From sequence record PP400781: a stretch of 64,000 nucleotides of DNA; one strand, 5' to 3'. The notes under the pieces are model-generated. The model saw only the letters and a program-made list of their open reading frames with translations. It had not been told where the DNA came from and made no database searches. Shown in pieces: positions 33,947 through 38,157 of this stretch. The stretch comes from Escherichia phage FL20. Position 1 is the first letter of the stretch, and every line of letters begins with the position of its first letter. The translations under genes and the position numbers were made by a program.

Positions 33947-35441
33947 CGAATACCTCTTTTACTGTATTTGCAGTGGTCTTGTCGTAGCGAATACGTTTGA
34001 TGATTGGGAGAAATAAAGAGAACTCCGGTTCATCTTCTTTACGTGATTTGCTGCGGATATACCCGTTGCATGTCATCTCAATGACTTTTCCAATCAGGTT
34101 ATGACGGTCAGACCATAACATTTCTCTGTCAAGTTCATTTCGACGGTCAAACGGAATCACACGTTCAATACCATCATCGCCTTTTTCGGTTGTGGTGTCG
34201 GTCAATCCCGATCCGGTGTTAGTCATCATTCGTCCGCACGCACTACGGACAGTAAAACCTCCTACCTTATTAGGATCTTTACTATGCGGATATACATCAA
34301 CAATTTCCGCGTCGAAGTCAATCACTTCTTTAAATTTAACCTGATCTTTACTGCGACGATCTTCAAATACACCATGTAAATTTTTAAGGATAATACCTTC
34401 TAAGCCCATGTTTACATAGCGATGATATACTTCGCGAGCTTCATCGATATTGTTAACTACAGTATTTTCGATTATCTGAACACGAGGATCGTTAAGTTCT
34501 TCAACAATCTGTTTTAGTTCTTCGAATCGATCTTTATATTGCTTCGTTGCTTTCTCGTTTCCGTAATACACATCACGGTCGATAACATCCCAGACAGTGT
34601 AAACAATACATTGGGCTTCTTCTTTTGGAATAGTTCCTTTCAGTGATTTGTTGAGGATACCATTTCCGGTCTGACGGTCTGCAACAACGGATTCTTTTAC
34701 TGCTTCCGCTACTGGCGTTAATGGCATTTCCTCTTCTTCAAATATCCATGACAGAGTACCATCATAAACGCTTTCAACGAAGTTCTGCGCTGGTGTTTGC
34801 GAAAGGGTAGGCATATATACCAATTCGCCATCTAGAACAATTCCACGGCCTCGTAGACGCTCTAAAACCGCAAACAAATCATCAAGTCCCTGATAGGTAT
34901 TACCTGAGCGGGTATAGATTGCTAATGTTTCCCCGTCAATATCAGCCATACCACGAGCGCCATCGCTTTTAAGTTGTGCATACGCCGGATACTTGATATT
35001 AGCAATAGTCTTATCAGAACATGACGATGCAAGGTGACACGGTTGCTGGGGGATCAGTTTCTTCCATACCTTGTTTGCAGTGGTAGCGGAACAACCACAT
35101 TCCAGATCACGATTCAGAACCATCATTGCAACTTTAGCATCATCTTCTGACAAGCAAGTCAGAGTATCGGTAACTAGCTGTAATGCTGCGTTACCAGTTA
35201 CTTGACGCGTGGCAAGTTTATTTTTAAAGACCTGTAATGCACCGGATAAAGACAATACAGACGAATAGCGAGATGGTTTATCGTATTTCTTTACGCCAAA
35301 CGTAACCTGTTTGCAATATGCCAGATAAAAGCATTCTTTCAGTGTTTCATTGCTTGCAGATTCTTTCAGGATCTTTTCTTTCAGCGATGTTTTGTCGGTC
35401 GCTGCAAGCTGGTTAATGATATTAAGAATTGACATTTTCAC
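33939..35441 (-). CDS. 30: ATP-dependent DNA ligase
   Basis: Adenylation motif AQLKSDGARG (KxDG), C-terminal FKEVIDFDAEIV; colinear with T4 gp30 as recalled. Confidence 0.9.
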   Translation of the reverse strand: MKMSILNIINQLAATDKTSLKEKILKESASNETLKECFYLAYCKQVTFGVKKYDKPSRYSSVLSLSGALQVFKNKLATRQVTGNAALQLVTDTLTCLSEDDAKVAMMVLNRDLECGCSATTANKVWKKLIPQQPCHLASSCSDKTIANIKYPAYAQLKSDGARGMADIDGETLAIYTRSGNTYQGLDDLFAVLERLRGRGIVLDGELVYMPTLSQTPAQNFVESVYDGTLSWIFEEEEMPLTPVAEAVKESVVADRQTGNGILNKSLKGTIPKEEAQCIVYTVWDVIDRDVYYGNEKATKQYKDRFEELKQIVEELNDPRVQIIENTVVNNIDEAREVYHRYVNMGLEGIILKNLHGVFEDRRSKDQVKFKEVIDFDAEIVDVYPHSKDPNKVGGFTVRSACGRMMTNTGSGLTDTTTEKGDDGIERVIPFDRRNELDREMLWSDRHNLIGKVIEMTCNGYIRSKSRKEDEPEFSLFLPIIKRIRYDKTTANTVKEVFDV

Positions 35442-36137: not shown

Positions 36138-36461
36138 TTAACCGTAAACTACCACAATATTCTGTTTGTGTGTTACAGTCCATTTCAGGTCGATCTCTTC
36201 TTCCTTCTTAACGCCGTTAATAACGTCTGGATGAGGAACTTTATTAAGTTTCCCATGAGGAAGCAACACAGTCTTGCCCAGCAATTCTTTATCAACGTTA
36301 TCGCCGATATCAATAATCTTACCGACTAAAGGAATCTCTCCCATAGTTCGTTTTTGCTCGATGATAATACCAAAATCGCTCTTTACTTCGGTCCCTGCGC
36401 TTTCCGCTTTAGCTTCAATGATCACATAGTCACCAAGTGCTTTAGGAGTTTTAACGGTCAT
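36138..36461 (-). CDS. 31: co-chaperonin for GroEL (GroES-like) gp31
   Basis: 107 aa; GroES-like beta pattern, position before cd. Confidence 0.75.
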   Translation of the reverse strand: MTVKTPKALGDYVIIEAKAESAGTEVKSDFGIIIEQKRTMGEIPLVGKIIDIGDNVDKELLGKTVLLPHGKLNKVPHPDVINGVKKEEEIDLKWTVTHKQNIVVVYG

Positions 36462-36497
36462 AATTTTCTTACCTCTTCAATTCATCTCAATAATAAA

Positions 36498-37116
36498 TTA
36501 TTTATATTTCGCGACCTTTGGATTTCGCCGCAGACCGGAATGTATTTGCGCTATACAACAATAAGAAACATTAAACATATCAGCTATAATTTGCTTCTTA
36601 ACTTTTCCTTTAAGCCGCATTATTTCTTCGACTTGCGCATTTGTCAGTTTTGCCCGTGAGTGGTTTTCACCGACATTGTTATTGAGTCCAGTTATAAATG
36701 AATGTCTCATATTTTCTAGTAAGGTTACTATTTCTAGATTCCACACAAAATTGCAGGTTTTTACACCATTGATGTGATTAACCTCAAGTCCGGTAAACGT
36801 CTCCTAGAAATGCATTTGCTACAAGTCGATGTATCTTTTCGGCTTTAACTGAGATTTTACCATTGTCTTTTTGTTTTGACAATGTTGAATAATAATATCC
36901 ATATCGGTCTAAAATTGGTTTTATTATTTTACCAGCACGTTTTTGTTGTACGAGCTTAATATTACCGGGAGAAACTTCTCTATAAAATTCGATACTTCGG
37001 TCAATAGATCTCAATCTACCATAATTAGAGATTTCATACCACGGATAACCTACAGCTTGTCTCCATTCTTCCGGCGCTGGTAATATGATATTATCATCTT
37101 TTGTTTCCATTGTCAA
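36498..37116 (-). pseudogene. frameshifted NUMOD4-HNH homing endonuclease
   Basis: Upstream ORF has NUMOD4 (GYPWYEISNYGRLRS) and IHRLVANAF; HNH core EVNHINGVKTCNFVWNLEIVT...ENHSRAKLT continues in another frame. Confidence 0.6.
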
Positions 37117-37439
37117 CTGCCACCGTACATTTCGACGATCTGCGCTGGAGTCAGCCCGTCTACATTAATCAGACTATCAAGCCCAAAACTACGAAAACCT
37201 TCAACTGCAATTTCATATACTGGCAAAGATGTTTCTGATTCTTTACGCGGTTTTTCAACATTCGGAACTAACCACTTTTCGTATGTTTCGAAAGGCATCA
37301 GTGCCGGATCTCTCGTGGCGATCATCTCGCGGACAGTACCATCTTTCTTAGTAAACTGCAAAGAGTGAGTACCGACCGAAAACATTTTCTTTAGTGCTTC
37401 ACGAAGTGCGATATTATCAATTTGTTCAGTCATTATCAA
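37113..37439 (-). CDS. hypothetical protein (108 aa)
   Basis: ORF coupled between cd and the endonuclease remnant. Confidence 0.5.
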   Translation of the reverse strand: MIMTEQIDNIALREALKKMFSVGTHSLQFTKKDGTVREMIATRDPALMPFETYEKWLVPNVEKPRKESETSLPVYEIAVEGFRSFGLDSLINVDGLTPAQIVEMYGGS

Positions 37440-37953: not shown

Positions 37954-38157
37954 TTAACCGTATACGCGAAAGTATTCTACTGATCCGTCGCTATACTGTT
38001 TTACATTGAATGTATTCACACCACGGTCATTGCTCATAATGACATACACACTTCGACGCTCGTCCACAAACGGGTTAACTGGTGCTGGTTCAATCTCAAC
38101 ATTAAAACCACGTTTAGCAAGTGCTTCGCCTAATTGCTTGAGTTTATCGGTAAACAT
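37954..38157 (-). CDS. hypothetical small protein (67 aa)
   Basis: ORF between cd and pseT. Confidence 0.45.
   Translation of the reverse strand: MFTDKLKQLGEALAKRGFNVEIEPAPVNPFVDERRSVYVIMSNDRGVNTFNVKQYSDGSVEYFRVYG

Follow-up and report, generated by a model that had tools for sequence, protein, structure and literature searches.

Two short open reading frames (ORFs) lie side by side on the minus strand of the genome of Escherichia phage FL20 (record PP400781; 164,765 bp). The question they raise is whether they are genes in their own right or the halves of one endonuclease gene and, if the latter, whether the break belongs to the phage, to the deposited sequence or to some programmed mode of expression. 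The window analysed here is a stretch of 64,000 nucleotides of this genome. The initial annotation had read the pair as a NUMOD4-HNH endonuclease split by a frameshift, located between gene 31 and cd. Both ORFs were found where it had placed them, on the minus strand, and gene 31 is indeed one neighbour; the other is gene 31.1, which ends with its stop codon 2 nt ahead of the ATG of the endonuclease, and cd is one gene further upstream. All of these genes are on the minus strand and the order of transcription is cd, 31.1, the two ORFs, gene 31 and a hairpin, with the DNA ligase gene further downstream:

37932-37426, minus strand: cd (dCMP deaminase)
37113..37433, minus strand: gene 31.1 (WYL_2 fold; PF10902 at 1.3e-9, phrog_1086 and the annotation of relatives)
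37110 (ATG) to 36786-36784 (TGA), minus strand: N-terminal fragment ORF of 108 codons, NUMOD4 and the start of HNH_3, then YRT
36498..36803, minus strand: C-terminal reading frame, HNH catalytic core (EVNHING...NLEIVT...ENMRH) and C-terminal region
36499..36506, minus strand: late-promoter-like motif TATAAATA, matching the T4-type late-promoter consensus
36138..36461, minus strand: gene 31 (GroES-like co-chaperonin; Cpn10 at 0.0067, below the cut-off, and the annotations of relatives)
36126-36108, minus strand: terminator-like hairpin after gene 31

The N-terminal ORF was listed as 36784..37116 with a TTG start; relatives start at the ATG at 37110, and the 108-aa fragment read from there is exactly XAO15385.1, a GenBank "hypothetical protein" of FL20. 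NUMOD4 (PF07463), which the initial annotation had recognised in this ORF, matches aa 14-77 at 47.6 bits against a cut-off of 23.4 (E = 1.9e-12). The fragment then runs into the beginning of HNH_3 (IHRLVANAF) and finishes with 3 aberrant residues (YRT), so that its C-terminal end reads IHRLVANAFLGDVYRT before the stop. A stop directly after IHRLVANAF had been described; the stop is there, but 7 codons later. The second frame is open from 36803 (a TAG occupies 36806-36804) to the TAA at 36500-36498. Its translation begins ETFTGLEVNHINGVKTCNFVWNLEIVT, also written as ETFTGLEVNHINGVKTCNFVWNLEIVTLLENMRH. As had been noted, the HNH core lies in this other frame and reaches upstream of the start of the 82-aa ORF; the C-terminal piece alone matches HNH_3 (PF13392) at profile positions 18-46 with 25.5 bits against 24.8 (E = 1e-5). 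Two shorter products lie within the frame, namely the 82-aa ORF itself (36498..36746), which starts at an internal GTG at 36746 corresponding to residue 123 of the joined protein, and a 70-aa GenBank product, which starts at the ATG at 36710 (residue 134) and is exactly XAO15384.1, again a "hypothetical protein" of FL20.

The two frames overlap by 17 nt (36803-36787), within which a +1 shift is required to get from the first to the second, and removal of one T yields a joined protein of 203 aa. When searched against the window by tblastn, aa 1-105 matched 37110-36796 and aa 106-203 matched 36794-36501, both at 100% identity; the two matches abut, with exactly one nucleotide skipped (nt 36795). 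On the joined protein the HNH_3 match extends across the frameshift to profile positions 2-46 of 46, at 34.7 bits against 24.8. Moreover, the match to the HNH endonuclease family phrog_59 extends over aa 10-196 (5.6e-35), and the two pieces correspond to consecutive stretches of it, positions 133-202 for the N-terminal and 221-273 for the C-terminal piece. Searching with the joined protein by tblastn returned 1041 phage records, in 372 of which at least 80% of the query is covered at a single place; the examples listed align aa 13-199 as a single uninterrupted piece, under genes annotated as HNH (homing) endonucleases. The tblastn and phrog_59 matches, and the I-HmuI match described below, all span the join, and the contiguous homology that a split gene should show was therefore found. 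Taken together, these matches indicate, far beyond chance, that both minus-strand frames are one split NUMOD4-HNH endonuclease gene. The tblastn search of the window with the joined protein gave no paralogue below E 0.29 besides the gene itself, and a search of NCBIfam did not find a family for it.

It had also been remarked that the 82-aa piece could be mistaken for rIII on length and position. This identification was rejected: the piece lies upstream of gene 31, rIII of T4 being downstream of that gene, and phrog_59 (4.9e-9) is the one PHROG family that it matches at E ≤ 0.01.

I-HmuI, the HNH nicking endonuclease of Bacillus phage SPO1 (PDB 1u3e), was the only solved structure retrieved by sequence for the joined protein; it matches aa 50-159 (E = 0.0014), across the break. 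In this alignment H112, N124 and N133 of the joined protein fall on H75, N87 and N96 of I-HmuI, followed by H136, and the catalytic His (general base) and Asn residues thus appear to be present in the joined protein. The frame break, at codon 105/106, is upstream of every catalytic residue, and the first start codon of the second frame (GTG at 36746) falls after His112. Neither piece should therefore be able to act as a nuclease, because the break precedes all the catalytic residues and the restarts come after H112. The order of an N-terminal DNA-binding region followed by the HNH core is shared with I-HmuI, as is the catalytic His/Asn alignment. However, similarity between the two is low, and I-HmuI is encoded inside a group I intron whereas the gene in the window is free-standing between genes. 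No match to the C-terminal DNA-binding domain of I-HmuI was found in the window protein by a Pfam search of its last 63 aa, and the same search (E up to 10) gave no credible helix-turn-helix family in this C-terminal stretch (best E 0.076). Single-sequence AlphaFold2 prediction of an intact orthologue gave an unusable model (mean pLDDT 36.5, pTM 0.23).

Sister copies locate the lesion. A megablast search with 36400-37200 matched 57 Krischvirus records, only 11 of which contained the whole region; these 11 carrier records represent nine phages (PHB13, E26, ELT4, ECD7, KFS-EC, pEJ01, G2494, phiS and G37-3), whose copies are 96-99% identical to the window in DNA. In a multiple alignment, the window reads GTTTAC where all nine sister phages that carry the gene read GTTAC; in wider context, the window has GACGTTTACCGG and all nine relatives have GACGTTACCGG:

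36795..36797, minus strand: TTT run with one extra T, from the DNA alignment with sister copies (column 36797)

An uninterrupted ORF of 612 nt (203 aa) is present in 8/9 sister phages and is named "HNH homing endonuclease" in several, and the HNH_3 domain, which in the window is not contained in any single translatable ORF, is so contained in these eight orthologues. The copies of ECD7 (HNH_2, ASJ80305.1), E26 (QHB48812.1), KFS-EC and PHB13 are at the same locus, 203 aa long, 97-98% identical in protein and uninterrupted, whereas the FL20 copy has the extra T and three private amino-acid changes. In the ninth phage, G37-3, the gene has an independent break at codon 117, where a 1-nt deletion has shortened A5 to A4 (window equivalent 36762). 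In a protein cluster formed at 90%, whose commonest sequence was seen on 52 contigs, all members listed are 203 aa long with the exception of the FL20 and G37-3 fragments. Pattern scans for the TT and TTT alleles in IMG/VR and metagenome contigs did not find a second copy with the extra T; the IMG/VR scan gave one match, of 39 nt, with the TT allele, on a 164,706-bp contig, and the metagenome contigs gave none. The lesion is unique to this record, because the scans returned no other sequence with the extra T.

Of the three options that the initial annotation had left, a pseudogene, a sequencing error and a frameshift-dependent gene, the first came out as the most likely. We consider that the FL20 copy is very probably a genuine, recently inactivated pseudogene. 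The extra T at 36795-36797 would shift the frame at codon 105/106, leaving a NUMOD4 fragment without a catalytic residue and a catalytic core without a start codon of its own ahead of His112; such inactivation would be the expected decay of a homing endonuclease once empty sites to invade run out. The substitutions private to FL20 bear on this reading. The gene itself has 0 synonymous and 3 non-synonymous (K55Q, Y121F and R139I), and its neighbours 31.1 and 31 together have 4 and 0, respectively (Fisher's exact test on this table, by hand, p = 0.029, on seven substitutions only). Among the intact copies, that of phiS has diverged furthest; of its codon differences from the consensus, 16 are synonymous and 2 non-synonymous, and it is because of this ratio that the intact gene seems to be under purifying selection. 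The private substitutions of FL20 look like relaxed selection and would fit a copy that is already drifting.

A sequencing or assembly artefact would mean that the phage has GTTAC and an intact 203-aa endonuclease, and that the T exists only in the deposited consensus. The lesion is a single-base homopolymer difference unique to this record, in a gene otherwise 98% identical in protein to intact copies, and the two 1-nt deletions of G37-3, in homopolymer-like contexts, could be errors too. However, the private changes, all non-synonymous in the gene (3) and all synonymous in its flanks, fit a gene free of selection. Moreover, consensus indel errors are uncommon in Illumina data in runs of 2-3 nt, and the run in question goes just from 2 to 3 nt. 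FL20, described as a Krischvirus in a study that also includes its sister phage FL15, was sequenced with Illumina MiSeq 2x250 reads and assembled de novo with CLC (PMC12032242). A sequencing error is thus possible, less likely than a pseudogene and on the whole unlikely, and we infer that the extra T is real in the phage.

Frameshift-dependent expression would instead have ribosomes move by +1 somewhere in 36803-36787, with ACU-UGA and the rare CGG codon as possible places, to give a full-length and possibly attenuated endonuclease. The product of a +1 shift at ACU UGA, GDVYRTEVNHING, would be as long as the intact GDVTGLEVNHING and differ from it in only three residues, and there is an AGGAG upstream of the shift region. 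However, this AGGAG is 11 nt from the ACU codon and is simply the conserved LGD codons, found in all copies; the stimulator of prfB lies about 3 nt from its shift site. A slippery site had been suggested as a check, and inspection of 36803-36787 found none, neither a prfB-like CUU-UGA-C nor an X-XXY-YYZ motif. Furthermore, the protein is in one frame in eight orthologues and the frameshift is not conserved. Because these eight close orthologues are single-frame and no slippery site was found, a frameshift-dependent gene is, on sequence grounds, essentially excluded, and we regard this route to the full-length protein as very improbable.

The fragments might also work separately, with the 108-aa NUMOD4 piece serving as a nuclease-free DNA-binding protein (for instance one that protects or regulates 31.1-31) and with loss of the nuclease having been selected. 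Both known lesions, at codon 105 in FL20 and at codon 117 in G37-3, spare the NUMOD4 ORF and fall at the entry to the HNH core. However, two events carry little statistical weight, and both are in short homopolymer runs, which are natural hot spots for indels. The private K55Q sits inside the NUMOD4 fragment itself, and an RNA structure that might mask the start codon of the endonuclease was not apparent, the fold of 37170-37070 being no more stable than that of shuffled sequence (z = 0.21). Selection for separate fragments is therefore scarcely credible. That the element has been tamed rather than killed, with NUMOD4 persisting as a sequence-specific DNA-binder or with +1 shifting at ACU-UGA yielding traces of endonuclease, is very unlikely.

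The pseudogene reading places a once intact gene at a site that most relatives leave empty. In endonuclease-less Krischvirus genomes (RB49, Phi1, FL15 and others) gene 31 directly follows 31.1. Of the 59 Krischvirus records with gene 31, 11 (from 9 phages) have the endonuclease gene at this junction and 48 lack it. Close relatives are thus polymorphic for its presence at a single fixed site. Alignments with RB49, FL15, UPWr_E1 and JK32 delimited the insertion:

36505..37125, minus strand: inserted segment of 621 bp (620 bp in intact relatives)

Its boundaries are ambiguous by a shared 2 nt, TA. Without the endonuclease, the junction reads GTCGAAATTTA|TAAATAATTC, and in carriers the two junctions read GTCGAAAT[T/G]TA|CGGTGGCAGTTGACAATGG ... 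GTCGCGAAATA|TAAATAATTT. Because of the insertion 31.1 ends differently, its last codons changing from IYK* to [I/M]YGGS*, and the endonuclease ORF terminates on the original YK* codons of 31.1. From these alignments and the domain matches, the gene can be classed as a free-standing homing endonuclease gene of the NUMOD4-HNH type, similar to I-HmuI, which a minority of RB49-like (Krischvirus) coliphages possess.

The insertion is accompanied by a change in the neighbouring sequence:

36246..36495, minus strand: divergent tract, the spacer between 31.1 and 31 together with nt 33-216 of gene 31, from comparison with endonuclease-less phages

Over this tract carriers are 98-99% identical among themselves and about 20% different from endonuclease-less phages. 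The contrast is sharpest with FL15, which has no copy and matches the window at 99-100% identity over kilobases on each side but at only 82-88% in 36200-36490. Within gene 31 there are 38 differences between the two, all within nt 33-216, against a background of <1%; they correspond to 27 synonymous and 5 non-synonymous codons. The intergenic 31.1-31 region differs as well, including a 5-nt indel. Gene 31 is at least 97.8% identical to that of the window in 11/59 Krischvirus records, which are exactly the 11 carriers, and 87-94% identical in the 48 endonuclease-less records; the endonuclease gene and the gene 31 haplotype are therefore in perfect linkage in 59 records.

The linked tract is presumed to be the co-conversion tract of a homing event, with which its linkage is consistent, short of proof. 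According to this scheme, the intact protein would bind DNA, presumably through NUMOD4 and the C-terminal region, and would presumably nick or cut endonuclease-less genomes near the 31.1/31 junction; repair from a carrier genome would then transfer the gene and, along with it, about 250 bp of the adjoining gene 31 sequence. Both the cleavage position and the homing of the enzyme we infer from sequence comparison. The position of the tract suggests that the recognition site is either where 31.1 meets 31 or within the 5′ portion of gene 31, and it also suggests that the gene 31 haplotype of carriers is the resistant version. If the endonuclease gene spreads, the co-chaperonin variant would therefore spread too. 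This endonuclease-linked haplotype differs from RB49/FL15 by D29S, F30M, D54E, N55T and L72M (window residue first), at gene 31 codons 29, 30, 54, 55 and 72 (36246-36429, minus strand).

Two phages without the endonuclease gene have mosaic versions of gene 31 (window equivalent 36138-36500). In UPWr_E1, gene 31 is of carrier type at nt 1-56 and after nt 124 and of RB49 type between, and in JK32 the type switches near nt 170. These mosaics look like the outcome of recombination or partial conversion, or like vestiges of an endonuclease gene lost in the past.

Similar elements are well known from T-even-type phages, in which inactivated homing endonuclease genes are commonplace. The Mob-type HNH endonucleases of T4 (e.g. 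MobE) are free-standing and intergenic and show co-conversion of flanking markers. The gene described here resembles them as an intergenic free-standing HNH gene with a presence/absence polymorphism and a linked divergent tract, a likeness drawn by description. Eddy and Gold are said to have found in 1991 that I-TevIII of the T4 nrdB intron is defective and that it is intact in RB3. This would be a parallel case of an HNH-family gene that is dead in one T-even phage while a close relative has kept it intact, i.e. in the decay phase of the homing cycle; however, the lesion in I-TevIII is reportedly a deletion inside an intron ORF, whereas that in FL20 is a 1-nt insertion in a free-standing gene. 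A full-text literature search for a described Krischvirus HNH homing endonuclease gave a single paper that, judging by title and abstract, offers a general genome characterisation. The gene is already known in kind, being annotated as an HNH homing endonuclease in ECD7, E26 and ELT4. What is added here is small and will not surprise a specialist, namely the exact lesion, the FL20/FL15/ECD7 trio and the gene 31 tract that predicts a target.

For annotation, XAO15385.1 and XAO15384.1 are best treated as the halves of one HNH homing endonuclease pseudogene, and not as genes or as rIII. FL20 (broken), FL15 (empty) and ECD7/E26 (intact) form a natural near-isogenic set for homing tests in RB49-like phages, in which the target of an uncharacterised enzyme is predicted by the endonuclease-linked tract. 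The locus would also illustrate the cycle by which homing endonucleases invade, become fixed and decay.

Several further observations concern the neighbouring sequence. The late-promoter-like motif TATAAATA, whose promoter role we assume from what is known of T4, occurs once on the minus strand of the window, 38 nt ahead of the ATG of gene 31. It shares sequence with the final codons and stop (KYK*) of the endonuclease gene or, in endonuclease-less phages, with the end of 31.1 (YK*). G37-3 has a second 1-nt deletion, of one T (window equivalent 36504), at the 3′ end of the gene; it changes TATAAATA to ATAAAATA, and gene 31 thereby loses the late-promoter-like motif in front of it. Within the inserted DNA, at 37116-37088 on the minus strand, there is a match to a sigma-70-like promoter (TTGACA, 17 nt, TAATAT with a TG extension; 10/12). 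It overlaps the start codon of the endonuclease, and transcripts from it would start inside the ORF and run toward gene 31. This match may be due to chance, there being 13 such matches in the region against 7.0 ± 2.9 in shuffles.

Several GenBank records (those of PHB13, ELT4, FL15 and UPWr_E1) give gene 31.1 the label 'tail fiber(s) protein'. This is probably a propagated misannotation, because 31.1 matches WYL_2 and phrog_1086, a family of unknown function. In ELT4 a 16-nt deletion lies within 31.1 (window equivalent 37313-37328), and the gene is annotated there as two ORFs.

Lastly, two short stretches of the window stand apart from all four phages compared, even from FL15, which elsewhere is nearly identical. 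One, at 38000-38100 in a cd.2-like 67-aa ORF (37954-38157), is 84% identical to all four, and the other, at 34100-34200 in the DNA ligase gene, is 91-93% identical to them. Both appear to be local mosaic patches specific to the window.
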